Shown here in pieces: positions 35,257-55,510 of a DNA stretch of 64,000 nt. The stretch is from the NCBI GenBank assembly GCA_963772455.1, contig CAVYXJ010000007.1, positions 160,001 to 224,000 on the forward strand, read 5' to 3'. A program made the position numbers and the translations under genes. How positions within the stretch are numbered: the stretch's first letter is position 1; each line of letters opens with the position of its first letter. Source of the DNA: Candidatus Bathyarchaeota archaeon. GTDB lineage: Archaea > Thermoproteota > Bathyarchaeia > Bathyarchaeales > Bathycorpusculaceae. The notes beneath the pieces are model-generated. The model was not told the origin of the DNA, searched no databases, and saw nothing but the letters and a program-made list of their open reading frames with translations.

Positions 35257-35578
35257 AAGTTAAGACAACTAATTGGCTCCAAACACCAAATAATTTTAAG
35301 AACATTAACCGGTATAATCTCCAAATTGTTTTACTCTCAACTGTAAATGGATTAACTATACACCGTAAACTTTTTATTTGCACTGTTGATTCTTTTTAAA
35401 GAACGGAGTTAAAAGAGGCAAGAATATGAGGGATCGTCACCTCCATAGCCGGGATCGTCGGGTACAACTTTTCTAATTCACCCAGGTTAACCTCTCAACA
35501 AACTACCGAAAAAATCTCGCAAGCAACTTTTCGAGACGACAGTATATTTAATTCAACATACAGGAGACAGAATTGAAA

Positions 35579-37287: not shown

Positions 37288-37799
37288 TGGAAAATGGAAA
37301 AACCAAAGTAATCAGCGTCTTAGTCGAAAACAAACCTGGTGTCCTCCACACAATCGCAAACCTATTCCGCCGAAGAAACTTTAACATCGAAAGCATCACC
37401 GTCGGTCCAACCCAACAGCAAGACATATCCCGCATGACCATAACCATCAACGGAGACGAAAAAACAATCGACCAAGTCGTCAAACAAGTCGCAAAACAAA
37501 TCGACGTCCTCAAAGTAAGCGAACTCGAACAAGGAAACTTTGTCATGCGAGAACTAGCCTTGATAAAAGTAAACGTTCCAAGCGCTAAAGAACGCTCAGA
37601 CATAATCAACTGCGTAGACGTATTTCGATGCAGAATAATCGATGTTTCAACCGACAGCTTAACTGTTGAAATCACAGGAACCCCCGAAAAAATCGACGCC
37701 TTCCTAAACCTCATGAACAGCTATGGAGTCATAGAAATCGCAAGAACAGGTATAACAGCCCTAGCACGAGGCGCAAAATCAATAAGAATCGACGAATAA
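37287..37799 (+). CDS. ilvN: Acetolactate synthase small subunit
   Basis: ENKPGVL, FRRRNFNIESITVG, EIARTG. Confidence 0.95.
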   Translation: MENGKTKVISVLVENKPGVLHTIANLFRRRNFNIESITVGPTQQQDISRMTITINGDEKTIDQVVKQVAKQIDVLKVSELEQGNFVMRELALIKVNVPSAKERSDIINCVDVFRCRIIDVSTDSLTVEITGTPEKIDAFLNLMNSYGVIEIARTGITALARGAKSIRIDE

Positions 37800-37898
37800 A
37801 CAGCATTGACTAAGTGGAAATACTTAATTGTCTGTTCTTTAAAATTTTTCCAATTATCTTAAGAGTATTTAGGTTAATTCAAGGATAAGCGAAAAACA

Positions 37899-39167: not shown

Positions 39168-39664
39168 ACAGCAAAATAAAAGCCCCAGCCATAACGTTCG
39201 GCAACAACATTGACACAGACGTTATTCTGCCAGGAAAATACCTAATCTTAGTTGATCCCTGCGAGTTAGCAAAGCATGCGTTAGAAAGCTTAGACACCAC
39301 ATTCCCAGACAAAGCCAAAAAAGGAATAATCATCATTGGCGGCAAAAACTTTGGTTGCGGCTCAAGCAGAGAACAAGCACCATTAGCCCTAAAGTACTCA
39401 GGTGTAAAATGCGTTATCGCCGAATCTTTTGCCAGAATCTTCTTCAGAAACTCCATAAACATAGGCTTACCAGTCCTCGAATGCAAAGGCATCTCAGACG
39501 CTGTCAAAACAGGCGACACCTTAGCTGTGGATTTTGAAGCGGGCAAGATAGAAAACACTTCCAACGGCAAAAAGTTTCAAGTAGACAAGCTTCCACCATT
39601 CATCTTAGAAATTTTAGCAGATGGCGGATTAATCGAAAACCTACGAAGGAAAATGAAAAAATGA
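39164..39664 (+). CDS. leuD: 3-isopropylmalate dehydratase small subunit
   Basis: IDTDVI, NFGCGSSREQA, SFARIFFRN. Confidence 0.93.
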   Translation: MNSKIKAPAITFGNNIDTDVILPGKYLILVDPCELAKHALESLDTTFPDKAKKGIIIIGGKNFGCGSSREQAPLALKYSGVKCVIAESFARIFFRNSINIGLPVLECKGISDAVKTGDTLAVDFEAGKIENTSNGKKFQVDKLPPFILEILADGGLIENLRRKMKK

Positions 39665-40698
39665 CAGAATACAAAATATCCCTCATTCCAGGAGATGGCA
39701 TCGGACCAGAATTAACCGAAGCCACCCTAAAAGTCCTAGACGCAGTTCAGAAAAAATTCGGAGTAAAACTTCAGATTATCGAAGCTGAAGCAGGCGACGT
39801 CGCACTTGAGAGAGTAGGCGCCGCATTGCCAGCAGACACAGTGGAGAAAATTAAGAATTCCCACGCTTGCCTAAAAGGTCCAGTAGGCGAATCTGCAGCC
39901 GACGTCATAGTGAAGCTCAGAGTCATGTTCGATTTATACGCTAATTTGCGTCCACTGAAAGCTTACCCAAACGTTCCAGTTGCCCGCCCAGACATCGACA
40001 TGATGTTTGTCCGCGAGAACACTGAGGACGTTTACAAAGGCTTAGAATTCACCATAGGCAACGACACCACCCTTTGCCTAAGAGTTATAACACGCAAAGC
40101 CTGCGAACGCATCGCCAAAAAAGCCTTCGACATCGCACGCCTACGCAACGGCAAAAAGAAAGTTACCGCTATCCACAAAGCAAACGTCATGCGCATAACC
40201 GACGGCTTATTCGCCAGCGTCTGCCGCGAAACCGCAAAACAGTACCCCGACATCGCATTCAACGAACTCTACGTTGATGCAGCATCCATGCGCTTAATCA
40301 AGGAACCAGAAATATTCGATGTCTTCTGCACATGTAACATGTTCGGCGACATCCTATCTGACGAAGCAGCACAGCAAATCGGCGGTTTAGGAATGGCTCC
40401 AGGCGCAAACATAGGCGACACCTTTGCTCTCTTCGAACCAATCCACGGCTCAGCACCAAACCGAAAAGGAAAACACACCGCCAACCCAATCTCCATGATA
40501 CTTTCTGCAAAAATGATGCTTGAGTGGCTGGGAGAAAAATACAACGACAAAAAATGTTTACAAGCAGGCGCAGCCATAGAGAACGGAGTAGTGTACGCGT
40601 TAACTAACCGTCAATCTGTTCCCGACTGCGGCGGCACCACAACGACGGTGGGCATGGCTGAAGCCATCGCTGCAGCCTTAACCGTGAAAACTGGTTGA
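39661..40698 (+). CDS. leuB: 3-isopropylmalate dehydrogenase
   Basis: GDGIGPE, RENTE, HKAN, NMFGDILSD, EPIHGSAP; operon context. Confidence 0.88.
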   Translation: MTEYKISLIPGDGIGPELTEATLKVLDAVQKKFGVKLQIIEAEAGDVALERVGAALPADTVEKIKNSHACLKGPVGESAADVIVKLRVMFDLYANLRPLKAYPNVPVARPDIDMMFVRENTEDVYKGLEFTIGNDTTLCLRVITRKACERIAKKAFDIARLRNGKKKVTAIHKANVMRITDGLFASVCRETAKQYPDIAFNELYVDAASMRLIKEPEIFDVFCTCNMFGDILSDEAAQQIGGLGMAPGANIGDTFALFEPIHGSAPNRKGKHTANPISMILSAKMMLEWLGEKYNDKKCLQAGAAIENGVVYALTNRQSVPDCGGTTTTVGMAEAIAAALTVKTG

Positions 40699-40702
40699 AA
40701 GT

Positions 40703-42226
40703 ATGACAAATAAAACCGCAAGAAGAATCCGAATTTTTGACACAACATTAAGAGATGGGGAACAAACCCCTGGAGTTTCTTTAACTGCAGATGATAAGAT
40801 GGAGATTGCACGTCAACTAAGCAAGTTGGGCGTTGACACCATCGAAGCTGGTTTTCCAAGTTCTTCAGAGGGCGAAAAAAAAATCGTCCGAGACATTGCT
40901 AAAGCAGGCTTAACCTCAGAAGTTTGCGCACTATCCCGTGCAACTAGGGGTGACATCGATGCAGCCTTAGATTGCGAAGTTGGCTTAATCCACGTTTTCA
41001 TCCCAACCTCAGATGTCCAGATGAAGTACGCTGTCAATTTGACGCCTGAGCAAGTGCTGGCTGCAACGGTAGACTCGATTTCTTACGTAAAGAAGCATGG
41101 AGTCAAATGCGAATTCTCACCCATGGACGCTACACGCTCAGACATAACTTTCCTAAAGCAAGTCTGTAAAGCCGCACAAGACGCAGGAATGGACAGCCTA
41201 AACGTTCCAGACACCGTCGGCATAATGATTCCCAAAACAACCTTCAAACTAATTGAGGAACTAAAAACCGTAGTCAGCGTCCCAATAAGCACTCACTGCC
41301 ACGACGACTTCGGTTTAGCAGTTGCCAACAGCTTAGCCGCTGTCGAAGCAGGCGCCGACCAAGTACACGTTGCCGTCAACGGCTTAGGTGAACGTGCTGG
41401 CAACGCTTCACTCGAAGAAGTAGTTATGGCACTGCACATGATTTACAAATACAAAACAAACGTAAACTCACGCTTACTCTACAGCACCTCTCGACTGGTT
41501 GCATCATTAACAGGTATTAATGTGCAAGCAAACAAGGCAATTGTTGGCGAGAACGCGTTTGCCCATGAATCAGGTATCCACACCCGAGGAGTAACAGAAA
41601 AACCACTTACCTTCGAACCTATTAACCCAGAATTAGTAGGACGCACAAGAAAATTGGTCGCTGGCAAATTAGCGGGAACCCGAGGTATCAAGGCTGAACT
41701 TGAAGAAATCGGAATTCACCCAACTGAGGAACAACTAAAAGAAATCGTTCAGCGCGTCAAAGATTTAGGCGACAAAGGCAAAATGGTCACAGATGCCGAT
41801 CTGATAGCGTTAACTTCGGCTGTAATGGGTGAAGTAATTGGGGAAGAAAAAATAATCGACTTATGCGACATGGCTGTCGTAACAGGCATCAAAGTTATCC
41901 CAACCGCATCCGTTCGACTAACGCTTAATGGCAAAGAATACGTTGCCGCCGAAACAGGAGTTGGACCTGTAGATGCAGTTTTGAAGGCCATTCAGAAGTT
42001 AACCAGCAGCATAGAAAACATCCGCCTTAGCGAATACCGTCTTGCAGCTATAACTGGAGGTTCAAATGCAGTAGCCGAAGTTATAATAAAAGTCGAAGAT
42101 GAAAAAGGCAACATCGTCTCAGCACGGGCAGCACGAGAAGACATAGTTATGGCAAGCGTTGAAGCAATGATAAATGGTATAAACAAGCTTTTGGTTAAGA
42201 ATCATAAGCAGGGAAACAAAAAGTGA
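40703..42226 (+). CDS. leuA: 2-isopropylmalate synthase
   Basis: [32 protein letters not shown]; in leuCDB operon. Confidence 0.82.
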
Positions 42227-43038
42227 CAAATGTAGCCTTCCAAGGCGAACCCGGCGCATACAGCGAGAACGCAGTGTACCAGTTCTTCGGCTCAAATGTG
42301 CAGGTGAAGCCGTGCAGAGACTTCAGAGACGTCTTTGAAAGCGTAAAATGTCAGGTTGTGGAGGCTGGTGTGGTACCAGTTGAGAATTCCCTTGAAGGCA
42401 GTGTTAACCAGAACTACGATTTGTTCTTCAGTTATGACCTCAAAGTGTGTGGCGAAGTCATTGTCAAAGTTGAGCATTGCTTTATCGTTAATCCAGGCAC
42501 AACTTTGGATTCCGTCAAAACCGTTTACTCTCACCCGCAAGCGTTAGCGCAGTGCCGCAGTTTTCTGGAGCACCTAAAATACGAGTTGGTTCCAACTTAT
42601 GACACGGCTGGAAGCGTTAAACTAATCAAAGAACAAAAACTGCTAACCGCGGCAGCCATCGCAAGCGAGAGAGCAGCCGAACTCTATGGCATGGAAATCC
42701 TTGCCCGAGACATCGCTGACAACAAAGAAAATTACACACGCTTCTTCGTACTATCTAAAGAGGATTCGCCGGTAACAGGCAAAGACAAAACCTCAATTAT
42801 CTTCTCAGCCAAACACGAACCAGGCTCACTCTACAAAGCTCTGGGAGAATTCGCCAAACGCAAAATCAACTTAACTCGAATCGAATCAAGACCAACAAAA
42901 AAAACCGCCTGGGAATACAACTTCTACCTAGACTTCGAGGGACACCGAACTGAACAGAAATGTGCCGAAACACTCAAAGCACTGGAAAAATATGCCACAT
43001 TCATCAAAATCTTAGGTTCTTACCCTAAAGCCATCTAA
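42223..43038 (+). CDS. pheA: Prephenate dehydratase (PDT-ACT)
   Basis: FQGEPGAYSE, PVENS, SHPQALAQC, NYTRF, IESRP. Confidence 0.95.
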   Translation: MTNVAFQGEPGAYSENAVYQFFGSNVQVKPCRDFRDVFESVKCQVVEAGVVPVENSLEGSVNQNYDLFFSYDLKVCGEVIVKVEHCFIVNPGTTLDSVKTVYSHPQALAQCRSFLEHLKYELVPTYDTAGSVKLIKEQKLLTAAAIASERAAELYGMEILARDIADNKENYTRFFVLSKEDSPVTGKDKTSIIFSAKHEPGSLYKALGEFAKRKINLTRIESRPTKKTAWEYNFYLDFEGHRTEQKCAETLKALEKYATFIKILGSYPKAI

Positions 43039-44036: not shown

Positions 44037-44912
44037 TTATTTCTCTGTAGACTCTAACATTTTGTACATGATGTCATATGAGTCTGCGAAATCGCTGTCA
44101 GCTGCGGATAGCTTCTTCTTTAGCTGTTCCATACGTTCAACGATTGCTTTTTGGTCTTTGTTTTTGATTAAGGCCAGCAGTTCTTGGGCTTTAGCAATGA
44201 ACAAATCCTCGATCTCGCCTAAGTTAGCCAAATTCGTTTGTACGCTTGCGTAGAGGTCTGGGGTTTCCAGCGCTGTTGCTTCAGCTAAGGTGAACAGCAT
44301 TCTATAAGTGGTGCCTGCAACTTTTTTGGTTTCTGGCAGGTTCTTCTGTTCCAAGAGTGTTTCGCATGCTACTAAACCAAGGAAATGCGGCAACCCCAAA
44401 ACGACTGACATTAGTTCGTCGTGCTTTTTTGGAGTCATGACGAATACGTGTGCTTCTTCCTTTTCCAACCAATGCTTGAATTGCTCAGCGAACTCTTGCT
44501 CCTTAGCGTTGGTTGGGGTTAAAACGTATGCTTTGTATTTGACTCCGTTGCTTCCTGGACCAAAAACTGGGTGCGTTCCTAAAACCGTGGCTCCCTTGAT
44601 GTATTGGTGCATAGTTTTGACTGGGGCTTCTTTGATTGAGCAAATATCCATAACAACCTGTCCCTCGTGGAGTAAGGGGCTGATCGCTTTAGCAACTTCT
44701 TCAATGGCGTTTATTGATATACAGAGCAGGATTTGGTCGGCATCTTTGACTGCTTCCTCAAAACTGGTTGTCAAGTCAACTAGTAAGTCTTTTTGCGCCT
44801 CAAGCTTCGCTTTCTTACGGTCAGCTAAAATAACGTCGTAATCTTTGGACATGAAAAATTTTGCGAACCAAACACCCATCTTTCCAGCGCCGATTACGGC
44901 AATCTTCATCAA
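44037..44912 (-). CDS. tyrA: Prephenate dehydrogenase
   Basis: GAGKMG Rossmann fold, DICSIK, HPVFGP, HDELMSVVLGLPH. Confidence 0.9.
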   Translation of the reverse strand: MMKIAVIGAGKMGVWFAKFFMSKDYDVILADRKKAKLEAQKDLLVDLTTSFEEAVKDADQILLCISINAIEEVAKAISPLLHEGQVVMDICSIKEAPVKTMHQYIKGATVLGTHPVFGPGSNGVKYKAYVLTPTNAKEQEFAEQFKHWLEKEEAHVFVMTPKKHDELMSVVLGLPHFLGLVACETLLEQKNLPETKKVAGTTYRMLFTLAEATALETPDLYASVQTNLANLGEIEDLFIAKAQELLALIKNKDQKAIVERMEQLKKKLSAADSDFADSYDIMYKMLESTEK

Positions 44913-45985
44913 GCTGCCTCACTGATTTTTTCCAACGCGACCTTAATGTCAGCATCTGGAGCAGTCAAGGAGATTCGGAAGTGTTCTCTGTAATCGCCAA
45001 ATGATGTACCTGGAGCAACTGCTACGCCTTTTTCGAGCAGGTCTAGAGTGAATTTTTCAGAGTCTAAGCCGTCAAGTTTGGGGAATATGTAGAAAGGTGC
45101 TTCGGGTTTGGTGAATTTGAAGCCTGCCGCAGAGAGTTTGGTGCTTGCCATATCTGCGCGTTGTTTGTATTTGGCTTTGATGGCGGAAGCGATTTGTTTG
45201 TGGAGTTCTAAGCCTTTGAGTGCAGCGTCTTGGATGAAAACAGGGACATTGTTTATGGTGATTTGGTTTAGTTTGGTTATGTTGTCGATTAAGGGTTTGT
45301 TAGCGATTAAGTAACCGATTCGCCAACCAGTCATTGTGAATGTTTTTGAGAAGCCGTTGCTTAAGATGTGCATGCAGTCTTTGTCGTAATCTAAGATGCT
45401 TTTTGTTTTTGTGAAGGCTATCGTAGCATAGACTTCGTCGGATAATATCGTGATTTTTTTCTTGTTTGCGATTTCTACAATCTTCTCAAGGGTTTCTGCA
45501 TTCATGACTTTGCTTGTGGGGTTGTTGGGGTTGTTGAGTATAATCATGCGTGTATCTTTGTCAATTAATTTTTCCAGATTATCTAAATCGACTTTCCAAT
45601 CGTTTTCAAGCTCAGTTCGCAACAGTTTGGTTTTGGCGCCTAGACTTTTAGCTATTAAATCGTAAGCTGTCCAATAAGGAGTTGGAATAATGACGTTTCC
45701 GCCGTTTCTTAGCATCAAGAACATTGTGGCGAATATGCCCCATTTAGAACCAGGCGTAATAACAACGTTCTCAGCTTTAACTCCATGAACCTGAGCGATT
45801 TTTTGTCTCAGCTTTAACTCGCCATAAGAAGAGGAATACTTGGTTTTACCCGCCTTCATAGATGCGTACGCGGCTTCCACTATTTCAGGCGGGGTAGCTA
45901 AGTCTGGATCTCCAAGGTTTAAGCGGATTATTTTTTTTCCTTCGCTTTCAAGTTTAAGAGCTTTCTCGTTTATCTCGTAGAGCAT
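44909..45985 (-). CDS. Class I/II PLP aminotransferase (probably aromatic)
   Basis: NNPNNPT, SDEVY, SKTFTMTGWRIGY; between chorismate mutase and tyrA. Confidence 0.88.
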   Translation of the reverse strand: MLYEINEKALKLESEGKKIIRLNLGDPDLATPPEIVEAAYASMKAGKTKYSSSYGELKLRQKIAQVHGVKAENVVITPGSKWGIFATMFLMLRNGGNVIIPTPYWTAYDLIAKSLGAKTKLLRTELENDWKVDLDNLEKLIDKDTRMIILNNPNNPTSKVMNAETLEKIVEIANKKKITILSDEVYATIAFTKTKSILDYDKDCMHILSNGFSKTFTMTGWRIGYLIANKPLIDNITKLNQITINNVPVFIQDAALKGLELHKQIASAIKAKYKQRADMASTKLSAAGFKFTKPEAPFYIFPKLDGLDSEKFTLDLLEKGVAVAPGTSFGDYREHFRISLTAPDADIKVALEKISEAA

Positions 45986-46012
45986 ATCTTTGGACTCTCC
46001 GTTAAGAGCGTT

Positions 46013-46273
46013 TTATTCTTGAACAGCACTGCACATATTAACTATTTCGCGATAAACCGCTTCAACCTGACTTGCATTAAGACCGAGTTTGATACCTTTC
46101 GCACGTATCCTCTTGTAAACCTCGTTCTCCCGTGCAACATCTCGAATTGGTTTGCCCTGCATTTTCTTGGCTAAACCGATTTCCTCACATACCTTTACTC
46201 GTACACACAGTGCCATTAGGATTTGGTCGTCGATTTCATCAATTCTTTGCCTAAGCTTTAGAATTTCAGCCAT
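46013..46273 (-). CDS. Chorismate mutase (AroQ type II)
   Basis: LRQRIDEIDDQI..R...IG..K...RD.ARE. Confidence 0.9.
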   Translation of the reverse strand: MAEILKLRQRIDEIDDQILMALCVRVKVCEEIGLAKKMQGKPIRDVARENEVYKRIRAKGIKLGLNASQVEAVYREIVNMCSAVQE

Positions 46274-46275
46274 TG

Positions 46276-47382
46276 TTACTGCCTCTTTAGAATACGCGGT
46301 ATAAACCCTGCTCTAATCATATGGTCAGCTAAAGTTATTGCAACTGCGGCTTCAATTGCGGGTACAGCTTTAGGAACAACGCAAGGATCATGTCTGCCCT
46401 TTATGCTTAAGGCTGCATTTTCCATTTTCTCTAGATTGACTGTTTTCTGTTCTTTTGCGATGGAAGGAGTTGGTTTAATCGCCACTCGAATCATAACGGG
46501 CATGCCGTTAGATAAACCTCCTAAAACGCCTCCAGCATTATCGGTTGAAGTTACAACTTGTCCCTTTTGAATTTGATAAGCGTCATTGTTCTGCGATCCT
46601 TTCACCAACGCAGCTTCAAAACCCATTCCAAACTCGACTCCTTTAACGGCTGGAACCGAAAAAATAGATTTAGCCAAATCTGCATCTAACGAATCAAACA
46701 AAGGCTCACCAACCCCAACGGGTATACCGAGCACAAGACACTCAATTATTCCGCCAAGACTGTCGCCTTCTTTTTTAGCGTTCACTATAGCTTCCTCCAT
46801 TCGCTCTCCACAAATTAAGTCAGGGCACCTTGTTGATGCGGCGTAACGGTTTTTGCGTATTTCGTCGGAAGTGAATTTTTTATCAGTCTTAACCTGCCCA
46901 ATCGCCGAAGTATAAGCCAACACATCAACATCAAAGCGACTGAGCATTTTTTTAGCGACTGTGCCAGCCATAATAATTGCTACGGTAACTCTACCTGAGA
47001 AACGTCCTCCACCACGATAATCGTTCAAGCCACCAAATTTGATTCGTGCTGGGTAATCTGAGTGCCCAGGTCTTGGCAGACCTTTCATCTCTTCGTAATC
47101 GCTTGAGTCTGTTTCCTTGTTTTCAACCAACACGGATATTGGAGCCCCAGTTGTTAATCCGTTAAAAATTCCTGAAAGAACCTTAACAATATCTTTCTCA
47201 ATACGTGCAGAAACAATCTTTAACTCAGCTGGGATCCTGCGGTCAAGTTCTATTTGGAAATCACTTTCAGAAAGAGGCAAACCTGATGGACACCCATCCA
47301 CAACTACGCCAACGACTTTGCCGTGACTCTCGCCAAAAGTGGTAACTGTAAATTCTTTACCGATCGAATTTCCCGCCAACAA
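46276..47382 (-). CDS. aroC: Chorismate synthase
   Basis: FGESHG, RPGHSD, GGGRFSGR, KPTPSI, GRHDPCV. Confidence 0.97.
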   Translation of the reverse strand: MLAGNSIGKEFTVTTFGESHGKVVGVVVDGCPSGLPLSESDFQIELDRRIPAELKIVSARIEKDIVKVLSGIFNGLTTGAPISVLVENKETDSSDYEEMKGLPRPGHSDYPARIKFGGLNDYRGGGRFSGRVTVAIIMAGTVAKKMLSRFDVDVLAYTSAIGQVKTDKKFTSDEIRKNRYAASTRCPDLICGERMEEAIVNAKKEGDSLGGIIECLVLGIPVGVGEPLFDSLDADLAKSIFSVPAVKGVEFGMGFEAALVKGSQNNDAYQIQKGQVVTSTDNAGGVLGGLSNGMPVMIRVAIKPTPSIAKEQKTVNLEKMENAALSIKGRHDPCVVPKAVPAIEAAVAITLADHMIRAGFIPRILKRQ

Positions 47383-48655
47383 CCTCAGCTCCTATTTGTC
47401 TTAGATGAGTGAAGAACTGCGGATAAGACTTTCTGACGCAATCAGCGTTTTGGATTGTAGTTTGTCCTTCTGCCCCTAAAGCGGCAACTGCGCAAGCCAT
47501 TGCGATTCGGTGGTCGTTATGGGGATCTATTATAGCGCCGTGTAAAGGTGAACCTCCTTCTATGATTAAGCCATCGTTCTTGATGGTAATTTGTGCACCC
47601 ATCTTTTTTAACTCAAGGTAAAGCGATTCGAGACGGTCAGATTCTTTAAGTTTAAGCCTACTTGCACCAAAAATATGGGATGTACCCTTTGCATAACACA
47701 TCATAACTGCTATAGCTGGAACAAGATCAGGAATGTGCTTTGCATCAACTTCACCTGTTCTAAGTAAACTTCCGGAACCTTCAATCTCAACGTTGTCCGC
47801 GCAAACTTGTCCATTAACGCCCATATGTTTTAGGATACCTATTATCGCCTTGTCTCCTTGAAGGCTATCATAATCAAGGTTATTTATTTGGACTTTAGAC
47901 TGAGTTATAGCTGCTCCTGCAAGAAGAAAAGCGGATGAGGAGAAGTCGCCTGGAACCTTGCTGTCAGCCGAAGTGTAGATTTGGTTTGCTGGAATATGTA
48001 TGTGATTTTCATGTGTAGGCACTTTAACTCCATGATTGGCAAGAACAGCTTCAGTCATTTTAACGTAACCTTCAGACTCCAACGGAGAAGACAGCATTAT
48101 TTCACTGTCCACTTGAGCCTTTGGGCATGCAAACATCAAACCTGAAATAAATTGTGAGCTCACGTTACCCAGAATTGATGTTTCACCTCCAGCAATGCCG
48201 CCACCCTCAACGAAAACCGCGTCTTTATTGCCGACATTACCGATATGGGTTTTAGCACCAAGTTCGGCGAGGCTTGTCAGTAATGGTTCCATGGGTCGCT
48301 TTTCAATTGAACCATTAAAAACTAGAATCGAAGACCCTTTTGCCAGGGCAGCTACTGGAACCATGAAACGCAATGTAGCTCCTGATTCACCACAGTCGAT
48401 TGGCTCTTTTGCAGCTTTAAGTGTATTAGGTCCTTTGATAATCCAGCAGCCCTCTATTTCATTCACTTCTGCACCCAAAGCAGTTACGGCGCGAAGCGTT
48501 GCTTGGGTATCACCGGAGAAAAGAGGAGCAGAAACTTTAGATAACCCACTAGATAATGCAGCGGCAATAACCATCCTCTGGGTAAAAGACTTGGACGACG
48601 GTGCACAAACTTGACCACTTAGCTTCACCGTTTTTTTAACAATTACATCCGCCAT
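47357..48655 (-). CDS. aroA: EPSP synthase
   Basis: SKS, CGESGATLR, SSQFISG, KESDR, DHRIAM, KSYP. Confidence 0.96.
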   Translation of the reverse strand: MADVIVKKTVKLSGQVCAPSSKSFTQRMVIAAALSSGLSKVSAPLFSGDTQATLRAVTALGAEVNEIEGCWIIKGPNTLKAAKEPIDCGESGATLRFMVPVAALAKGSSILVFNGSIEKRPMEPLLTSLAELGAKTHIGNVGNKDAVFVEGGGIAGGETSILGNVSSQFISGLMFACPKAQVDSEIMLSSPLESEGYVKMTEAVLANHGVKVPTHENHIHIPANQIYTSADSKVPGDFSSSAFLLAGAAITQSKVQINNLDYDSLQGDKAIIGILKHMGVNGQVCADNVEIEGSGSLLRTGEVDAKHIPDLVPAIAVMMCYAKGTSHIFGASRLKLKESDRLESLYLELKKMGAQITIKNDGLIIEGGSPLHGAIIDPHNDHRIAMACAVAALGAEGQTTIQNADCVRKSYPQFFTHLRQIGAEVVGGKFDR

Positions 48656-48658
48656 TAG

Positions 48659-49528
48659 TTAGAGCACCTTAGCTTTCTCACAATTCAATTTAGCCTGCAA
48701 TATTTCACCGTCATATTTCTGCAAAGCAGCTTTCACTAAATCAACTTTATCCTTTGAAACCACAGCTGTAACCGCTGGTCCTTTGCCACACAGCCCAGCA
48801 GCTATCGCGCCAGCAACTAATGCATCGATAGCGATTGCAGTATTGAGGTTGGAAGCTGAAGAATAAATTAATCCATTAAGTGTTAATGCCTCCCAGATTT
48901 TGCCATCTAAAACTTTCTCGAAGGCGATTTCCACGAGAGGTTTGAGCGTTTTGAGCCTATTTACGTTGCAGTCGATTGTGTAAGCTTTTTGGGGGGGCAC
49001 ATGGAAAAGCACATCTAAATCTTCAGGCAATGGATATTGTTTGATTATTTCTTGTTTCAAGTTGTCAGTGATTTGTAATCCGCCAAAGTAAGAGGCGCAA
49101 GCATCGTCAAATGCGCCTGTTACGGTAACTTTCGCGTCAAAAGCTGCTTCAACACCTAACTTTATGATGTCTATATCATCAAGAGTTTTTCCCAGTGCCT
49201 TTGTGGTTGCTAGAGCTGTTGCGTTTGCAGCTACACTACTGCTCTTAAGCCCTCGTGCAATGGGAATGTTGGATATGGTTTTTATTTTTACTCCAAAACT
49301 CTTCTCTAAATTAAATCTTCTTAGGACTCTTGTAGCAGTTTTTTCTATAAGAAGCGTACTTTCTTTTGGGTCAGAAACTATCTCAGCTCTAATAACGCCT
49401 GCTTCATCGGTTATGTTAACTTCAGCTCTAGTCCACAAGTCAATCCCAAACGCAGCACCCTTTCCCAACGCAATTGCGTTAACGATTGTTGCTGCCCCAT
49501 GAGCAATAGCTACTGCTTTACCTGTCAA
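48659..49528 (-). CDS. aroK: Archaeal shikimate kinase (GHMP)
   Basis: HGAATIVNAIA, IPIARGLKSSS, TGAFDDACAS. Confidence 0.93.
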   Translation of the reverse strand: MTGKAVAIAHGAATIVNAIALGKGAAFGIDLWTRAEVNITDEAGVIRAEIVSDPKESTLLIEKTATRVLRRFNLEKSFGVKIKTISNIPIARGLKSSSVAANATALATTKALGKTLDDIDIIKLGVEAAFDAKVTVTGAFDDACASYFGGLQITDNLKQEIIKQYPLPEDLDVLFHVPPQKAYTIDCNVNRLKTLKPLVEIAFEKVLDGKIWEALTLNGLIYSSASNLNTAIAIDALVAGAIAAGLCGKGPAVTAVVSKDKVDLVKAALQKYDGEILQAKLNCEKAKVL

Positions 49529-49530
49529 TT

Positions 49531-50397
49531 TTACACCTTCGTTAAATGATTTAGCGCTGCCTGCCTCATAACATCAACAGGTGCAGACTTACCCGTCCAG
49601 ATTTCAAAAGAAGCCGCACCTTGATAGATTAACATCTCAACACCACTAACCACTTTCGCACCAGCCGCCTTCGCGTCTTTAGCCAGTCTAGTTTCAATTG
49701 GGTTATAGACTATGTCCATGACAGCTAAATTTGGTCGTAAAAGTTTAGGCGCTACTGGGGTTTCCTCACCTTTCGGTTTCATCCCCACTGATGTAGCATT
49801 GATTAAAACGTCTGAGTCTTGAAGATTTTGTTGTATTTCTTTCGGCGAAAGTGATCCTGAAACAATTTTCTTATTTGCGATCTTCTCAAGAAGTTTGGCT
49901 AAGTCTTGAGCTGGTTTTAGGGAGCGATTCAACACTGCCAACTCGTCAGCTTCTTTAGCCATTGTGTATGCTATGGCTCTAGCTGCGCCTCCTGCACCTA
50001 ACAATAGAACCTTTCGCCCCTTCAATTCAACCCCGTTTTCTCGGAGAGCTTTCAATGCACCAACTCCATCGGTGTTGAAACCAAAGAGTTTGTTATCTCT
50101 GTTTAAGATAGTATTAACTGAATTGATAATTTGAGCAGATAAGTCGGTTCTATCAAGAAACTTTAAAATTGGAGTTTTATGAGGCATTGTTACATTTAAG
50201 CCGCGTATGTTTAGAGCTCGCATGCCGTTGACTGCATTTTCAATTTCTGCAGGCTTCACCTTGAAAGCTAAAAACACATAGTCGAGGTTTAGGGCATTGA
50301 ATGCTGCGTTGTGCATGATTGGGCTTAATGTGTGTTCTATAGGATCCCCGATAACCCCGCAAACCCTTGTTTTTCCAGATATACCCATATCATCCAT
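49531..50397 (-). CDS. aroE: Shikimate dehydrogenase
   Basis: SPIMHN, NVTMPHK, NTDG, GAGGAA, MLIYQG. Confidence 0.96.
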   Translation of the reverse strand: MDDMGISGKTRVCGVIGDPIEHTLSPIMHNAAFNALNLDYVFLAFKVKPAEIENAVNGMRALNIRGLNVTMPHKTPILKFLDRTDLSAQIINSVNTILNRDNKLFGFNTDGVGALKALRENGVELKGRKVLLLGAGGAARAIAYTMAKEADELAVLNRSLKPAQDLAKLLEKIANKKIVSGSLSPKEIQQNLQDSDVLINATSVGMKPKGEETPVAPKLLRPNLAVMDIVYNPIETRLAKDAKAAGAKVVSGVEMLIYQGAASFEIWTGKSAPVDVMRQAALNHLTKV

Positions 50398-51073
50398 TCC
50401 CCAACAGAGAATAAGCAGTCTTCATTTCATTTATGCCCATTTGTCCCGCAGCAGTTTCACTGCCATCGCCGAGTGAGGCAAAAGTGAAAAAAGCCCCAAA
50501 CAAAGGCGATAGAACTCTCGAAACTCTGCCATGTTCACCCATACAGAAACAAACGATCTTAGCCTTGCTGGAAGAAAGCGAAATAAAGCTCAAAACAGGC
50601 AAGTTGTCCGCTATCTGTAAAGCAGTTGTCACAATCTTACAGACGAAAGCGCCGCTGGCAAGTTCTTCATCTAGAATCGCCGTCATCGCTAAAACGTTGA
50701 GTGCACCGTCGAACTTGTGGTAGGAAACAATGGGTTTCACCCCTAACATTTTAATCTGACTGATAATTTCTTTGTGTTTTGGACATGATAAATCTATATC
50801 AACATATTCAAAGCCGCTTTTAGCCGCATTCAAAAGAGTTTGTTGACGTTCAGATTCTATTCCAGAAAAAAATCCTTTTTCGCTTAGGAGTCTGTTTGTG
50901 GCAATTAAGGGAACTTTCGTGCTTGCTGACAATTCGGACAAATTGCGGGATGTCTCAAGGCAGTCAAGCCTAACTTCTATAATGTCAGCTTTGGTTAACT
51001 CTGCTTTTTCAATGAGGTTTAAAGCTTCACTGTTGTTTTTTGGGAGAATCGAGACACAGATCCTCGGGGTCAC
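50390..51073 (-). CDS. aroD: Type I 3-dehydroquinate dehydratase
   Basis: EVRLD, SYH, KIV, MGE.GR.SR, TAAGQ. Confidence 0.9.
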   Translation of the reverse strand: MTPRICVSILPKNNSEALNLIEKAELTKADIIEVRLDCLETSRNLSELSASTKVPLIATNRLLSEKGFFSGIESERQQTLLNAAKSGFEYVDIDLSCPKHKEIISQIKMLGVKPIVSYHKFDGALNVLAMTAILDEELASGAFVCKIVTTALQIADNLPVLSFISLSSSKAKIVCFCMGEHGRVSRVLSPLFGAFFTFASLGDGSETAAGQMGINEMKTAYSLLGNG

Positions 51074-52110
51074 TTTTCAATCACCGTTTCTTCAGGTACA
51101 GATATGCCAAAGTGCCTTCCTCCCTTCGCAGCTATGTGCACTAATACTTCGTCGTTTGGCTTTAATTCTGTAACTGGTTTTGATGCTTGGGGAGTGACTA
51201 GGCGGATAGTTTCAGCGTTCTGCAAAATGGTTTTAATTTTGGTGTCGTCTGCTTGGGCTTCAATGAGTATTAGGGGGCGAAACTCGATTTTGGATCTTCC
51301 CACGTTTGTCAACCTAACTTTGCCTTCTCGGTTAACAATTAAGACCTCATCTCCTGCCTTGAGCTCAGAGAGGTACCTAGTGCTCTGTGTTGATGTCAAA
51401 GTGTAATGTGAGGCAGGTCCAGCGTTAACCCTGAAAGGTCGAGATTGCACATAGGGATTCTCATTGACTTCAGCTTCAACAAGGAAAAAACCCGCTGATT
51501 GACAACCTACAAGCATGCCTTCTCCTGGAACCATCAAATCAATAGTGTCAACGCAAACTCTCGCGCCCGAACCAATGGGCTTAATTGACAAAATCTTCGC
51601 TGGCTTTATCACCATTTTTTGGACTTGTGAGTTAATGAATTTAATTGTTTTTTCCAGTTCGTTTGGGCTTCCAGTTTTAAGAAGCACACCATCAGTTCCA
51701 AGTTCAAGCGCTTCCAAAACCACCTTCGCATCTTCAGAGGTTATGACTTCAGCGATTAAGGAGCTTTTTCCTCTACCTTTCGCAATCAAGTTTTCAAGCG
51801 GAATCACTCGCCAATCGATGCAATTTATAATCACATAGTCAACGCCGAGATCTCCGGCTTTAGCGGCTTTGTTTTCATCCTCTTTGCCCTGAATAGTAAC
51901 TCTAAGGGCAGTTTTTTTTCCTTCTTTCTTTAATTGAGCAATCTTTTTCTCGTTTAAATCAGTTATGAAAACTATATCGAGTTTGCCGGTCCTATTGCTA
52001 GCTTGGTCCCCTTCAAGGATTACATCCACGTTTTCATGTGAAATGCTAAGCAAACTCTCTTTTTCTTGAACTGAAGCTTTTGGATCAATTTCTATCCAGA
52101 GTTCCTTCAA
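51070..52110 (-). CDS. 3-dehydroquinate synthase II (AroB')
   Basis: WRVIPLENLIA, RVCVDT, RPFRVNAG, QNAETIRL, GRHFG. Confidence 0.95.
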   Translation of the reverse strand: MKELWIEIDPKASVQEKESLLSISHENVDVILEGDQASNRTGKLDIVFITDLNEKKIAQLKKEGKKTALRVTIQGKEDENKAAKAGDLGVDYVIINCIDWRVIPLENLIAKGRGKSSLIAEVITSEDAKVVLEALELGTDGVLLKTGSPNELEKTIKFINSQVQKMVIKPAKILSIKPIGSGARVCVDTIDLMVPGEGMLVGCQSAGFFLVEAEVNENPYVQSRPFRVNAGPASHYTLTSTQSTRYLSELKAGDEVLIVNREGKVRLTNVGRSKIEFRPLILIEAQADDTKIKTILQNAETIRLVTPQASKPVTELKPNDEVLVHIAAKGGRHFGISVPEETVIEK

Positions 52111-52898
52111 CGCTTTTCACCCAGGAGTCTAAGCGCTTGCTCCACCGATAAGTTTTCGTGAACTATAGCTGCGAGCGCTTTGACGATTTGAGTTGGGTTT
52201 TCGCATTGAAACACATTTCGTCCTATCGAAAGTCCAGCGGCTCCAGCTTTAAGTGAATCATATGTCGTTTGGAGGATTTCTTGGTTAGTTTTGCATTTTG
52301 GTCCACCAGCGATGACCACTGGAACAGGGCAGCTTTCAACTACAGTTTTGAAGGTTTCAATGTCGCCTGTATAGTTGGTTTTGATAATGTCTGCGCCAAG
52401 TTCTGCACCGATTCTTGCTGCGTGCGCCACCACTTCGGGTGAGTGTTCGTTTTGGATTTTTGGTCCACGCGGATACATCATTGCAAGCAATGGCAGACCG
52501 AAGAGATCACATTCTTCGGAGACTTTACCGAGATTTTGAAGCATTTTGTCTTCGTCTTGGGCTCCAACGTTAACGTGTACAGAGACTGCGTCTGCGCCGA
52601 TGCGTATTGCTTCTTGAACGGAACAGACTTGTACTTTGGCGTTTAAGTTAGGACTAAGATTTGACATGCCTGACAACATAACAATTAGTCCTGCTTGTCC
52701 CGTATCGATGCGTTTAGCTATGCCTTTGTGGACGAGGATAGCGTCTGCATTTCCTTTCACTAACTTTGTGGTTATTTCCTGCATGTTGGTTATGCCTTGG
52801 ATAGGTCCGATTGTAACACCATGATCCATGGGCACGATTACTGTGCGGTTGTCTTGCTGCATGATTCTTCTTAATCTACGGGTTTTTCCATTATTCAT
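52107..52898 (-). CDS. 2-amino-3,7-dideoxy-D-threo-hept-6-ulosonate (ADH) synthase (AroA')
   Basis: PMDHG, MMYPRG, GADIIKT, AGG, GRNVFQ; adjacent to DHQ synthase II. Confidence 0.92.
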   Translation of the reverse strand: MNNGKTRRLRRIMQQDNRTVIVPMDHGVTIGPIQGITNMQEITTKLVKGNADAILVHKGIAKRIDTGQAGLIVMLSGMSNLSPNLNAKVQVCSVQEAIRIGADAVSVHVNVGAQDEDKMLQNLGKVSEECDLFGLPLLAMMYPRGPKIQNEHSPEVVAHAARIGAELGADIIKTNYTGDIETFKTVVESCPVPVVIAGGPKCKTNQEILQTTYDSLKAGAAGLSIGRNVFQCENPTQIVKALAAIVHENLSVEQALRLLGEKR

Positions 52899-52910: not shown

Positions 52911-54146
52911 TTAACGTGTTTTAAGTGAGTTTTTAATTAGTTTTAATGCTTTTTCTCTCTCATTCCAATCCACAAACAGCAGAATACTTGAGGTGATGGT
53001 TAGTATTCCTGAGATGTTTATTCCGTTGACTCGCAGATCTTCGCTTATTCTGCCAATTATACCATGGGTTTCTTCCAATCCCACCCCACTGGTTTGTATA
53101 AACACCAAATCTTTTTTGACTGCCATAGCAATAGTTTCTTTGTTGCTTGTAGTTATTTTGTGAATTTGATTGAAAAGGACTTCGATATTTTTTTCTTGCG
53201 GGACATAGAGAATAATGGAATTCGTATTCATTGACATGCCTAAAAGCATCGAGTTTTCCTTTACTTTCTCAACCATTTCAGTAATGACTTGGGGGTTTGC
53301 GGAGATACCTTTTCCAATCACAGTTATTTCCGAGACTGGCGTTTGATGAGCTATTTCTGCGCCCAATTCTGAAATTAATTCACCCTTTATCAAAGTGCCT
53401 TCACTGCTTAAGTCGCCTTGCGAATTGCTTATGACTTTAACATCGATGTTTTTTGGTTTGTACTTAAGGGCTTTACTGTGGATAAACTTGGCTCCTGAAT
53501 CCGCTAGACCCACAAGTGTGTTAACGTCGATTTCTTTAAGCCTCTGAGGATTCGTAATGATTTTTGGGTCACCCGACATGATGCCATCAGCATCTGTAAC
53601 TAAAACAACTTGATCCGCACATAACGCTTCAGCTAAAATGAATGCGGTAGTATCGCTTCCACCTCTGCCTAAAGTTGTGACTTTGCCTTCTTTGGTTTTA
53701 CCAAGAAACCCTGCTATGACGGGTATAGTGCCTTGTTCAACTATTGGGAGGATGCATTCTTTGATGTTTTTTTCACATTCTTTAAGAATTGGGTTGGCGT
53801 TTTGAAATGCTGCATCTGTAATTATTGGCCAGTTACAATCGATTGGGTCGAAGTAACAGGAGTTTGCTCCATTGCTTTTTAGGGCAGCTGAAAATATTCG
53901 CACGCTGGTCCGTTCACCCATGGAGAGAATATCATCTAAATCGTGTTTCTCTAATTTCCCGTTCGAAGTATTTTTGGCTGTAGACATGAGAACATCGGTT
54001 GTTTTACCCATAGCGGAAACTACAACAGCGATCTTGATACCTTTCTTGGATTCGTTAACCACAGCAACTACTGCTTTTAGGAGTCGTTCGTGATCGGCAA
54101 GGCTAGAGCCACCGAATTTTACAACAATTCTTTTGTTATCTGCCAT
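52911..54146 (-). CDS. Aspartate kinase with ACT domains, first gene of the aro operon
   Basis: VVKFGGSSL, VVSAMG.TTD, TTLGRGGSDTTA, TDADG. Confidence 0.92.
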   Translation of the reverse strand: MADNKRIVVKFGGSSLADHERLLKAVVAVVNESKKGIKIAVVVSAMGKTTDVLMSTAKNTSNGKLEKHDLDDILSMGERTSVRIFSAALKSNGANSCYFDPIDCNWPIITDAAFQNANPILKECEKNIKECILPIVEQGTIPVIAGFLGKTKEGKVTTLGRGGSDTTAFILAEALCADQVVLVTDADGIMSGDPKIITNPQRLKEIDVNTLVGLADSGAKFIHSKALKYKPKNIDVKVISNSQGDLSSEGTLIKGELISELGAEIAHQTPVSEITVIGKGISANPQVITEMVEKVKENSMLLGMSMNTNSIILYVPQEKNIEVLFNQIHKITTSNKETIAMAVKKDLVFIQTSGVGLEETHGIIGRISEDLRVNGINISGILTITSSILLFVDWNEREKALKLIKNSLKTR

Positions 54147-54164
54147 CTAGTACACCCGTATTTC

Positions 54165-54200
54165 GCCCAGAACCGCTCAAAAAAGTTTTCAGTTCTGGGC
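54165..54200 (-). promoter_or_regulatory. Leader hairpin with internal U6 (candidate attenuator)
   Basis: GCCCAGAACTG / CGGTTCTGGGC stem (11 bp, one G-U), loop AAAACTTTTTTGAG; begins at the base after the leader stop codon. Confidence 0.7.
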
Positions 54201-54287
54201 CTAAGGAAAATGGTAATAATAAAAATAGTAGTCGAAGCTAAGGAACGGTGATAAATTAGCGCCGTTTTTACTTTTGAAATGTGACAT
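54201..54287 (-). CDS. Putative Tyr/Phe-rich leader peptide (28 aa)
   Basis: MSHFKSKNGANLSPFLSFDYYFYYYHFP; TTATATTT box near 54323-54330 upstream. Confidence 0.7.
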   Translation of the reverse strand: MSHFKSKNGANLSPFLSFDYYFYYYHFP

Positions 54288-54367
54288 TTGCTTCGAACCT
54301 GTTCAATCAGTCACATCCCAAAAAATATAAGCGTTTCGGATTCAGGCTATTGTTTAATTGTTCAATA

Positions 54368-55078
54368 CTACTCTGGCGCCTCTACTTTGATGATCTGCGG
54401 AATTTTCCCAGCAGTCCCAACTTGCCCCTTATATAATATAAGCACTCCTTCAACACCTTCAATCGACAAACCTCTTTTGATGCCCGCATTAATCCCAACC
54501 TGTCCATCATCGCCTTTCACTACATTACAAACGGCTGTAGCGGCTGCATCTGACAAAGCAGCATTTTTGCAGAAAACTATTGCTGCTTCGGCATCCCCAA
54601 AACTAAAAGCGTGACTGAATCGTCCTGAACTAGTGGCAATCCCAATTGGAAATTCAGTTAGCCTAAACCCGAAGCGTCTTGAGAGAGGTTCCTCTCCTGC
54701 CGCAACTGCTACATTAATTGGCTGGTTTGAGAATGCTGAAATTTCGCCGCCATTCTCCACAACCGCCACTTCGCAACCCACCCGTTTCATATCCTCAACG
54801 GCTAAATCTGCTAAAGCTCCTGCAACGGCCGCCATTGGTCCAACATTTGCTGTTTGGGCTGCTATCGCCATTAAATTTGCTACAAGAGGCTTTTCTGGCA
54901 AAGCAATTGGCTCAAAGGTATAAAGAAACTTTGGATTAGCCCTAACATAAAGCTCCAATTCTTGACGGTTCCGCTTGATGGATGCTATAGCCGAGTCGAT
55001 ACCTTGTTGTCTATCAGAAAGAATTGTGCATTGAGTCTCTTTTAGGGAAAAACTTTCTTTAAAAAGTTGACTTGTCAC
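54368..55078 (-). CDS. UPF0280/ApbE-like protein (COG2122)
   Basis: VGPMAAVAGA, VENGGEI, GIATSSG, SFGDA, DAAATAVCN. Confidence 0.88.
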   Translation of the reverse strand: MTSQLFKESFSLKETQCTILSDRQQGIDSAIASIKRNRQELELYVRANPKFLYTFEPIALPEKPLVANLMAIAAQTANVGPMAAVAGALADLAVEDMKRVGCEVAVVENGGEISAFSNQPINVAVAAGEEPLSRRFGFRLTEFPIGIATSSGRFSHAFSFGDAEAAIVFCKNAALSDAAATAVCNVVKGDDGQVGINAGIKRGLSIEGVEGVLILYKGQVGTAGKIPQIIKVEAPE

Positions 55079-55510
55079 CGTTTCTTTTCCCTATTAACGG
55101 AGGTACCATTGTTGTTTGGTTTAATCGATTTTATGGCGCGAGCGGGGCATGCATCAACACAAACACTACAGGTACTACCAACACATTTCTCTTTATCAAA
55201 CTGAACAGTTGAATCTTGGGCTAATGTTATTGCTTCCACTGGGCAAAGTGCAATGCAGCTGCCACAACTAAAGCATTTGTCCGAGTCAACTTCAATTAAT
55301 TTGGGAACGGTTACTGAGATACCTCTATTGCGGAAAGCATTAACAACTTTTTCGAGTATGTCGTCAGGGACTTCAGACTAGGATTTCTCCACCTTTTGAA
55401 TTTATATGTGCGGACAAAATTGCCATTGGCACTTTGTATTCAATAATTATTTGGGATGCTATGGGCTCTGATACTTGGTCTTCATTGAATCTTATTAGAA
55501 TTCTTCCCAT
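55075..55510 (-). CDS. NIL-domain plus 2x[4Fe-4S] ferredoxin protein (one +1 frameshift near 55375; absent from ORF track)
   Basis: Hand translation MGRILIRFNEDQVSEPIASQII...CFSCGSCIALCP...CVGSTCSVCVDACP. Confidence 0.85.

Follow-up and report, generated by a model that had tools for sequence, protein, structure and literature searches.

The 64,000-nucleotide stretch analysed here (the window; positions 160,001 to 224,000 of contig CAVYXJ010000007.1, from a Candidatus Bathyarchaeota archaeon) carries on its minus strand, directly ahead of an 11-gene operon for aromatic amino acid synthesis, a short open reading frame (ORF) dense in Tyr and Phe codons whose stop codon abuts an RNA hairpin. Judged from its sequence and that of its relatives, this leader is probably an attenuator of some kind that senses aromatic (Tyr/Phe) tRNA through a leader peptide. 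The ORF, its codon bias, its frame, the hairpin, the junction of hairpin and stop codon and the position of the promoter are all conserved. The match between the enriched codons and the pathway products, the free N-terminus, the maintained frame and the structured spacer that joins the ORF at a fixed point together suggest a leader that reports on tRNA charging. The fuller statement, in which a cis-acting attenuator reads charged Tyr and Phe tRNA and passes the result on through the output step described below, is more tentative, and we see slightly less in its favour than against it.

The leader peptide, MSHFKSKNGANLSPFLSFDYYFYYYHFP, contains five Tyr and five Phe (10/28 codons), nine of its last 14 residues are aromatic, and six aromatic codons follow one another without interruption (TAC TAT TTT TAT TAT TAC, 54230-54213 on the minus strand). 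Direct reading of the DNA agrees on each of these figures, and on the coordinates of the ORF, with an earlier note made from the letters of the window, hereafter the original prediction. The hairpin, which we call P2, begins with the base immediately 3′ of the leader stop codon, and its stem comprises 11 pairs in the minimum free energy structure from RNAfold, GCCCAGAAC(UG) with (CG)GUUCUGGGC, one of them G·U. A run of six U lies in the loop and is followed after 6 nt by the UU of the 3′ arm (54172-54171). Seven bases then separate the end of P2 from GGGTG, the Shine–Dalgarno (SD) sequence of an aspartate kinase gene whose ATG is at 54146. The 11-bp stem abutting the stop, the U6 in its loop, the GGGTG ribosome-binding site (RBS) and this start codon had all been claimed before and are present, as is the TATA-like element claimed upstream of the ORF, TTATATTT, which is preceded by CCGAAAC, similar to a transcription factor B recognition element (BRE; Table 1).

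The aspartate kinase heads the operon, followed in order by ADH synthase, DHQ synthase II (3-dehydroquinate synthase II), DHQase I and shikimate dehydrogenase (genes 2-5), a GHMP-type shikimate kinase, EPSP synthase and chorismate synthase (genes 6-8), and chorismate mutase, an aminotransferase and prephenate dehydrogenase (genes 9-11). According to these family assignments, the 11 genes are the archaeal aspartate-semialdehyde route to chorismate, extended to Tyr, and the leading kinase presumably feeds aspartate semialdehyde to ADH synthase. The enriched residues had been matched to the end products of the pathway, and indeed the genes recognised by Pfam and NCBIfam yield chorismate, prephenate and Tyr. 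The kinase adjoins ADH synthase and DHQ synthase II in 47/49 loci of the order and in all other families checked.

The leader is found well beyond this genome. We located orthologues of the kinase in 23/24 other species of the genus, 163/301 genomes of the order, 113/301 of the class and 38/301 of the phylum, and scored a leader where an ORF with at least six aromatic residues among its last 14 ended 30-130 nt before the kinase match; values on the opposite strand, which served as a control, were low (mode 3, maximum 6 aromatic residues). All 24 loci of the genus show the leader layout, and the ORF is present in 27/27 loci with kinases at least 52% identical; three further loci (L028-L030) are kinase paralogues without an ADH synthase nearby, two of which (L029 and L030) lie outside that scan. 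Among close, named Bathyarchaeia records, 80/80 carry the leader versus 1/80 on the opposite strand. Among 40 loci taken from 12 other genera of the family and from five other families of the order, 37 score, 36 of them with a correctly placed leader; the 37th (L098) is misplaced and lacks the hairpin.

At greater distance the leader becomes patchier. Eighteen of the 39 usable loci in other orders of the class score: with families (f) and genera (g) given by our codes, these are f14 (3/3), f30 (4/4), f27 (3/3), f37 (2/3, the third with five aromatics) and one each in f16, f19, f32, f34 and f1/g24. We do not count the eighteenth, L210 (f17, six aromatics), as a real leader, and the kinases of f17 and f31 are weak matches without a dense aromatic run. 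Other classes of the phylum contribute 8/15 loci, in f58 (3/3), f62 (2/2) and f47 (3/6), with none in f52 (0/4). Across clades, the tail keeps its richness in Tyr and Phe (sometimes Trp), and the residues in between are not conserved, as illustrated by tails such as ..FYRYRYFFYR, ..FFTYFSGYYTTF, ..FFGSFGYFGYRG, ..PYYYYYYYCFF, ..FFDFFYYYFYFE and ..FGFFYGFYFYFYFGP. Within the genus (n = 24), the promoter, the box GGTTCGAAGC, the ATG, the aromatic block, the stop, the hairpin arms and the SD are near-invariant, and the first ~16 leader codons vary in both sequence and length, with indels in multiples of three behind an invariant ATG. A comparison across Bathyarchaeia had been proposed as a check on the original prediction, and the frame, the Tyr/Phe-codon run with synonymous changes, the stop-hairpin junction and the upstream promoter proved to be kept in many families; compensatory changes in the stem occur within clades.

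The reading frame is maintained as well. Frame 0 is open from the ATG to the stop at the hairpin in 24/24 loci of the genus, and frames 1 and 2 contain stops in 12/24 and 22/24. In 137 unique tails, the share of aromatic codons at successive positions back from the stop is 0.20, 0.81, 0.76, 0.64, 0.91, 0.84, 0.79, 0.75, 0.47 and 0.60, falling below 0.1 beyond codon 15; over the last 12 codons it is 0.63 in frame versus 0.11 and 0.14 in the other two frames. Both synonymous codons occur for each residue (TAT 385, TAC 186, TTT 277, TTC 238), alongside 25 TGG, and the last aromatic codon lies one, two or three codons from the stop in 28, 99 and 10 tails, that is, within three codons in 137/137. 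GC-rich relatives retain aromatic codons in a GC-rich context, so the run is not a mere AT-rich or TATA-like stretch. The commonest residue before the stop is Pro (49/144 tails), found there in the home genus as well as in the distant f58 and f62 (..FGP-stop). Pro-stop is a slow-release context in bacteria, and by analogy it would prolong the ribosome's stay on the hairpin arm.

The leader also stands out within its own genome. Among 1592 small ORFs lying between gene-like ORFs and at most 200 nt upstream of one in this 2.45-Mb genome, none but this one reaches 8 aromatic residues within a span of ten; two others have 7 and six have 6, and the four annotated runners-up (two with 7, two with 6) sit before unrelated genes. 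Neither the P2 hairpin nor the promoter word has a second copy in the genome. Frame specificity, the GC-rich clades, the opposite-strand control and this genome-wide control rule out chance or AT-richness as the origin of the run. A genome-wide scan for the architecture passed 252/1594 cases and is hence unspecific, and for 17 other residue-rich small ORFs collected genome-wide the downstream genes were unrelated to the enriched residue. From these scans, the device appears to be specific to the aromatic operon in this organism.

The hairpin was followed in 65 loci with a defined start of the first gene. The spacer from leader stop to that start measures 35-72 nt, pairing starts within the stop codon or at most 4 nt past it in 63/65 loci, and the median folding energy is −18.3 kcal/mol, with z < −2 against 100 mononucleotide shuffles in 59/65. 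The stem GCCCAG../..CUGGGC is common to f1 (the home clade), f6 and f7; stems elsewhere are unrelated to it, among them GCCGCGACCG, GGAGAAAUCAAGACA, GGAAGAGC, AAGCUUCGAAACC and AAGGGGACCG. A 14-sequence alignment of the family has 96.8% of its cells paired and compensatory changes at two inner pairs; its covariation score of 0.209 compares with 0.128 ± 0.020 for shuffles (0/500 as high) and with 0.02-0.05 when the alignment is slid. One-sided changes in the stem yield G·U in 8/8 cases, and the loop ranges from 12 to more than 30 nt. G·U pairs form only in sense-strand RNA, and together with the variable loop length this favours an RNA hairpin over a DNA operator. It ends 3-12 nt before the SD in all clades, which brings the leader stop near the SD. 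In the home clade, the loop holds U4-U7 at +16 to +22 after the stop, followed 6-8 nt on by the U's of the 3′ arm; the claim that the U-run sits in the loop therefore holds for the window and its clade, but many clades elsewhere have the run 3′ of the hairpin.

Several familiar structures are missing. Mutually exclusive terminator and antiterminator hairpins were not found, since folding predicted only P1 (below) and P2, with no conserved alternative to P2. Two pairings that the original prediction had put forward as alternatives, ACCGTTC with GAGCGGT and CACCGT with the RBS region, do exist in the window, but they lie in codons 13-16, a part of the leader that varies even within the genus, and we reject them. 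The core of that prediction, a translated Tyr/Phe leader that acts with the hairpin as an attenuator, loses these two pairings and is otherwise strongly supported by the conserved frame, codon run, junction and promoter. A terminator scan of the window detected no intrinsic terminator (GC-rich stem, then U-run), and bacterial-type terminator and sigma-70 scans gave nothing meaningful there. Rfam has families for the Phe, Trp, His, Thr and Leu leaders; cmscan over 53500-55200 with E up to 10 matched no leader family and returned two chance hits, neither of them a leader. The hairpin was also considered as a frameshift stimulator and set aside, as no canonical slippery heptamer was seen by eye.

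A second helix, P1, is predicted by RNAalifold between the 5′ untranslated region (UTR) and the Ser-Phe-Asp codons of the leader. It is retained in 21-24/24 genus sequences through invariance and wobble changes only, with zero compensatory changes, and we treat it as a candidate with modest support. The P1 words of the home genus, GCUUCGAA and UUCGAAGC, recur in f14 as the arms of its stop-abutting hairpin (AAGCUUCGAAACC..GGUUUCGAAGCUU, L188-L190), either by coincidence or as a shared recognition motif.

The promoter places the leader at the head of the transcript. In 78/87 loci a TATA-like hexamer begins 29-62 nt ahead of the leader start, compared with 8/85 regions taken 70 nt further up, at a median distance of 46 nt (interquartile range 43-48), and the promoter is near-invariant in 23 genus sequences. 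With the spacing usual in archaea between TATA box and transcription start site (TSS), the TSS is predicted near 54300, ~15 nt before the leader ATG, and because it precedes that ATG the leader would, on this prediction, be the first cistron on the mRNA of the operon. Inspection by eye showed a purine-rich, SD-like word between the predicted TSS and the leader ATG in most clades. Different species have unrelated sequences upstream of the TATA box, implying that the element travels with the operon; likewise, the gene at 54368-55078 is not kept beside the leader in other species.

How such a leader would be translated, where ribosomes would stall, in which direction control would run and how transcription would end, we infer from this arrangement as follows. 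Transcription would begin ~15 nt before the leader ATG, and a ribosome would translate the ~26-codon leader behind RNA polymerase. With Tyr- or Phe-tRNA scarce, the ribosome would stall in the aromatic run (codons 2-10 before the stop) with its leading edge short of the hairpin, which would fold and let transcription read through, so that the operon is expressed. With Tyr and Phe plentiful, the ribosome would reach the stop and its mRNA channel would hold the 5′ arm, so that the hairpin could not fold and both its loop U-tract and its 3′ arm would trail the polymerase unpaired; termination through the U-tract and dependent on FttA (aCPSF1) would then follow ahead of the aspartate kinase gene or at its start. 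The hairpin would act as the anti-terminator, with no separate terminator hairpin, and, since it stays intact when the ribosome is starved, it should be the element of the ON state. Bacterial ribosomes cover ~12 nt ahead of the A site. Modelled with that footprint, a ribosome on codons 2-10 before the stop would reach at most the first bases of the stem, and one with the stop codon in its A site would cover the whole 5′ arm. The drop in aromatic fraction between codon 2 and codon 1, together with a stem that begins at the stop, fits a design in which only a stop-positioned ribosome opens the stem.

Geometry favours an output that runs from the melted stem and the U-tract to FttA-type termination, and features of archaeal termination reported in PMC8716108 and PMC11616081 would accommodate it. 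Archaeal terminators are described as U-tracts to which the KH domains of aCPSF1 bind and which require no hairpin (PMC8716108). An FttA-dependent terminator spans positions −1 to −36 of the nascent RNA, U-rich from −30 to −36 and with a U at −23, and ribosome and FttA are proposed to exclude each other on the elongation complex (PMC11616081), a competition also proposed as the basis of archaeal polarity (PMC8716108, PMC11616081). In sequence, the U6 of the window and the UU of the 3′ arm would fit the spacing given in PMC11616081. The genome encodes a 644-amino-acid FttA with KH, metallo-beta-lactamase, beta-CASP and RMMBL domains. Whether this arrangement amounts to an old and widespread form of ribosome-mediated attenuation in archaea, wired otherwise than in bacteria, with a single stop-set hairpin as anti-terminator and a completed leader handing U-rich RNA to FttA/aCPSF1, is more doubtful; we consider it possible and lean against it.

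A number of observations weigh against the attenuator or against the output favoured here. Because the most aromatic ORF was chosen at each locus, the leader counts lean upward, and relatives are non-independent samples. The operon occurs without a Tyr/Phe leader in f26 (0/7), f35 (0/7) and f52 (0/4). No cognate-rich ORF was found in this genome upstream of trp, of his or of the gene string with pheA; sibling leaders of this kind, which the original prediction had suggested looking for, thus did not turn up before trp and his, a negative that covers trp, his and pheA, as the locations of the leu, ilv, thr and arg operons were not determined one by one. A T-run of at least four lies within the hairpin in 54/65 loci, a figure without a shuffle control. 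In many clades, f14, f7, f11, g20, g52 and several genera of f1 among them, the U-run sits behind the 3′ arm and right beside the SD (for example hairpin-UUUUU-AUGGAGG), so that the hairpin cannot hide it there; one mechanism may not fit all clades, or the favoured output may be wrong. The ribosome's dwell at a stop codon is brief, and the footprint used above is a borrowed figure. Contigs from one sediment metatranscriptome run (7% of sampled words) fall on parts of the kinase and of the upstream gene and not on 54147-54330, which is evidence neither way.

The U-runs behind the 3′ arm raise the alternative that the same sensor is wired as in bacteria, with the hairpin and a following U-run serving as terminator or pause site: a ribosome stalled on the last aromatic codons would cover the 5′ base of the stem and cause read-through, and with Tyr and Phe plentiful the ribosome would finish and leave, the hairpin would fold and transcription would end. 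The order of 3′ arm, U3-U6 and SD in f14, f7, f11, g20 and g52 resembles an intrinsic terminator, and with the last aromatic codon never more than three codons from the stop, stalled ribosomes can reach the base of the stem. We nevertheless regard this wiring as unlikely. The window and its clade have no U-run after the stem, and the terminator scan found none; the aromatic frequency is lowest at the last codon, the best site for occlusion; a starved ribosome should stall first further upstream, too distant to cover the stem; and archaeal terminators are reported in PMC8716108 as U-tracts that need no hairpin.

Alternatively, the same sensor might act after transcription, its ribosome position altering initiation at the kinase gene or the stability of the mRNA, whether through SD access, through the hand-over of terminating ribosomes across the hairpin, or through a stalled ribosome or hairpin that blocks 5′-to-3′ decay. 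Such an output would resemble mycobacterial poly-Cys short ORFs or erm leaders. The short distance between hairpin and SD in all clades, the closeness of the leader stop that results, and the place of the leader at the extreme 5′ end of the predicted mRNA are consistent with it, and the mycobacterial precedent acts on translation (bioRxiv 10.1101/834739). Against it, predicted access to the SD averages 0.41 with a ribosome at the stop and 0.42 with one stalled 4 codons before it, no difference by thermodynamic modelling (Wilcoxon p = 0.53, 66 loci); a conserved anti-SD did not emerge, and hand-over of ribosomes would raise expression when Tyr and Phe are plentiful, the wrong direction. A simple SD-sequestration switch in particular found no support, as partition-function folding with the footprint at the stop, or 4 or 1 codons before it, gave no consistent change in SD access. 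On balance, post-transcriptional output seems to us improbable to the same degree as bacterial-like wiring.

Less probable again is that the small ORF acts through its peptide, either as a tunnel arrest peptide that senses free Tyr or Phe in the manner of TnaC or SpeFL, or as a small functional aromatic protein. Cognate-residue richness is typical of charging sensors, and the known ligand-sensing arrest peptides keep specific residues. A loose motif, S-F-x-Y-x-F-Y, does return across clades with different codons, and the frequent C-terminal Pro before the stop recalls TnaC and pheL. However, conservation is confined to composition: neither the length nor the N-terminal half nor the residues that separate the aromatics are constant, no specific conserved residues of the TnaC/SpeFL type were found in the leader, where the tail keeps its aromatic composition only, and the junction of stop and hairpin would have no role for a free-standing protein. 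Finally, one could suppose that no leader is translated, that the ORF is a by-product and that conservation reflects signals in the DNA, namely a palindromic repressor operator and an AT-rich second promoter. This idea draws on the shared GCCCAG...CUGGGC of f1, f6 and f7 and on the TATA-like look of Tyr/Phe codon runs in AT-rich genomes, and we consider it highly improbable given the variable arm spacing, the G·U outcome of all one-sided changes, the unrelated stems of other clades, the GC-rich clades that keep aromatic codons without a TATA-like run, the frame evidence and the invariant ATG.

Leader-peptide attenuation is a textbook bacterial mechanism that relies on ribosomes trailing RNA polymerase, and such coupling is known in archaea. 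The element shares with the bacterial attenuators pheL-pheA, trpL, hisL, thrL and leuL a 5′ short ORF, a codon run for the end product, a free N-terminus and a structured spacer, and by analogy it would share the logic of reading tRNA charging through the position of a ribosome. pheL ends in Phe-Pro-stop, much as many of the leader tails here end in Pro-stop. Features of class-I attenuators are likewise found, namely a cognate-enriched 5′ short ORF (rank 1/1592) and a frame that is kept while other codons drift. It differs in its archaeal host and transcription machinery, in having no mutually exclusive 1:2, 2:3 and 3:4 hairpins, in the lack of a hairpin-then-U terminator in the window, in the single hairpin directly after the stop and in the absence of an Rfam match. 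The element appears to work like the pheL/trpL/hisL class and like the mycobacterial poly-Cys short ORFs, but by the structures that define the bacterial families it is not one of them.

Other systems offer partial likenesses. The mycobacterial polycysteine leaderless short ORFs of the ‘Cys ribulon’ are also cognate-rich first cistrons, whose stalling controls the operon with no need of a classical terminator switch (bioRxiv 10.1101/834739). There, stalled ribosomes unmask a sequestered RBS (same source), in contrast to the unchanged SD access predicted here, and those ORFs are leaderless, whereas ours has a short 5′ leader with an SD-like word and a hairpin abutting the stop. Compared with archaeal U-tract/FttA termination, the leader has a U-tract followed by U ~7 nt downstream and the genome encodes FttA; the known FttA sites lie at gene ends and are unconditional (PMC8716108, PMC11616081), whereas the site proposed here would be part of a 5′ leader, gated by a hairpin under ribosome control. 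Rho-dependent attenuation at tnaC is alike in that a ribosome near the leader stop decides the access of a termination factor to the adjacent RNA. TnaC, however, senses free Trp through specific residues, and its stalling blocks Rho and turns expression on; the polarity proposed here is the opposite and the sensor a codon run.

We found no archaeal leader-peptide attenuation in the full-text literature searched (subscription journals and supplements lay outside its scope), in agreement with the original prediction, which held that attenuation of this kind is not known to be experimentally established in archaea; the text of a review of archaeal coupling, PMC8116511, contains neither "attenuat" nor "leader peptide". 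The element offers a phylogenetically broad test case, spanning at least 16 coded families and several classes. If the mechanism is true, FttA termination that is conditional and gated by translation would have its first natural example, and functional coupling in archaeal gene control would gain direct genetic evidence. The element could reveal how translation controls a CPSF73-like termination factor and a polymerase resembling RNA polymerase II. It would also show how a costly pathway is regulated in uncultured Bathyarchaeia and supply a template for seeking other amino-acid-sensing leaders in archaea, where ORFs so short normally go unannotated.

Table 1 Features of the leader region and the operon in the window (all on the minus strand).
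Feature	Position	Description	Basis or conservation
Intergenic stretch	between the 54368-55078 gene and the operon's first gene	carries promoter, ORF, hairpin and SD	
Promoter	54321..54339	BRE-like CCGAAAC 54339-54333, GC, TATA box TTATATTT 54330-54323 (+TT)	direct reading
Predicted short 5′ UTR	54288..54300	AGGTTCGAAGCAA, with SD-like AGGT and conserved box GGTTCGAAGC	at least 90% conserved in genus
Candidate helix P1, 5′ strand	54296-54290	UCGAAGC	RNAalifold pairing with 54238-54232
Leader ORF	54201..54287	ATG 54287-54285, 28 sense codons, TAG 54203-54201, peptide MSHFKSKNGANLSPFLSFDYYFYYYHFP	
Candidate helix P1, 3′ strand	54232..54238	GCUUCGA (Ser-Phe-Asp codons)	7 pairs
Putative aromatic sensor block	54207..54236	F18...F27, TTC GAC TAC TAT TTT TAT TAT TAC CAT TTT	tail codon profile
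Hairpin P2	54165..54200	arms GCCCAGAAC 54200-54192 and GUUCUGGGC 54173-54165	RNAalifold, RNAfold, multi-locus folding
U6 tract in P2 loop	54179..54184	candidate termination or FttA-binding signal	
SD of first operon gene	54153..54157	GGGTG	kept as GGGTG/GGGGG/GGAGG 6-12 nt before start, all clades
Aspartate kinase, operon gene 1	52911..54146	AA_kinase + ACT	Pfam; NCBIfam NF005159, 384.9 vs cut-off 379
Operon genes 2-11	44037..52898		Pfam; NCBIfam TIGR01949 (ADH synthase), 348.6 vs 299

Some observations concern the surroundings of the operon. The upstream neighbour at 54368-55078 (minus strand) belongs to no Pfam family and matches NCBIfam PRK04334 ‘hypothetical protein’ models below their cut-off (217 vs 262 bits). 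Prephenate dehydratase, the gene of the Phe branch, lies outside the operon at 42223-43038 on the plus strand, in a plus-strand gene string (35573-43038) that converges on the operon's end. In other lineages (L223-L229, L232 and L234-L248), a gene of ~1.1 kb often lies between the kinase and ADH synthase, for which aspartate-semialdehyde dehydrogenase would fit as a candidate. Families f26 (L182-L187, L217) and f35 (L197-L199, L216, L220) have other conserved small ORFs before the same kinase-led operon, for example M-G-D-x-L-F-G-D-G-V-Y.., MGGHLYWHKPAPETLIQV and ..NFGGxIYGDRYWLAH..LFPN, which may represent a different, peptide-specific type of leader.

Elsewhere in the genome, an Arg-rich ORF before a LysX-type gene was considered as a sibling leader and rejected, being an out-of-frame reading of a lysW-like gene. 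This LysW-type carrier gene, with two CxxC pairs and a C-terminal EDWGE, lies at C7:260560-260730 (minus strand; contigs by our codes), just upstream of a LysX/RimK-type ATP-grasp gene (also in L253, 1290-1475). A second trpA-like copy at C5:141192-141972 (minus strand) contains four stop codons and is split between frames, and a match to IGPD (hisB) at C7:436288-436774 (minus strand) is split over two frames; pseudogenes, frameshifts or assembly errors are possible in both cases. At C21:67850-68302 (minus strand), a gene of the T4 gp19 tail-tube family (Pfam E = 8e-41) is preceded by a small His-rich ORF and may be part of a contractile injection system or a provirus.

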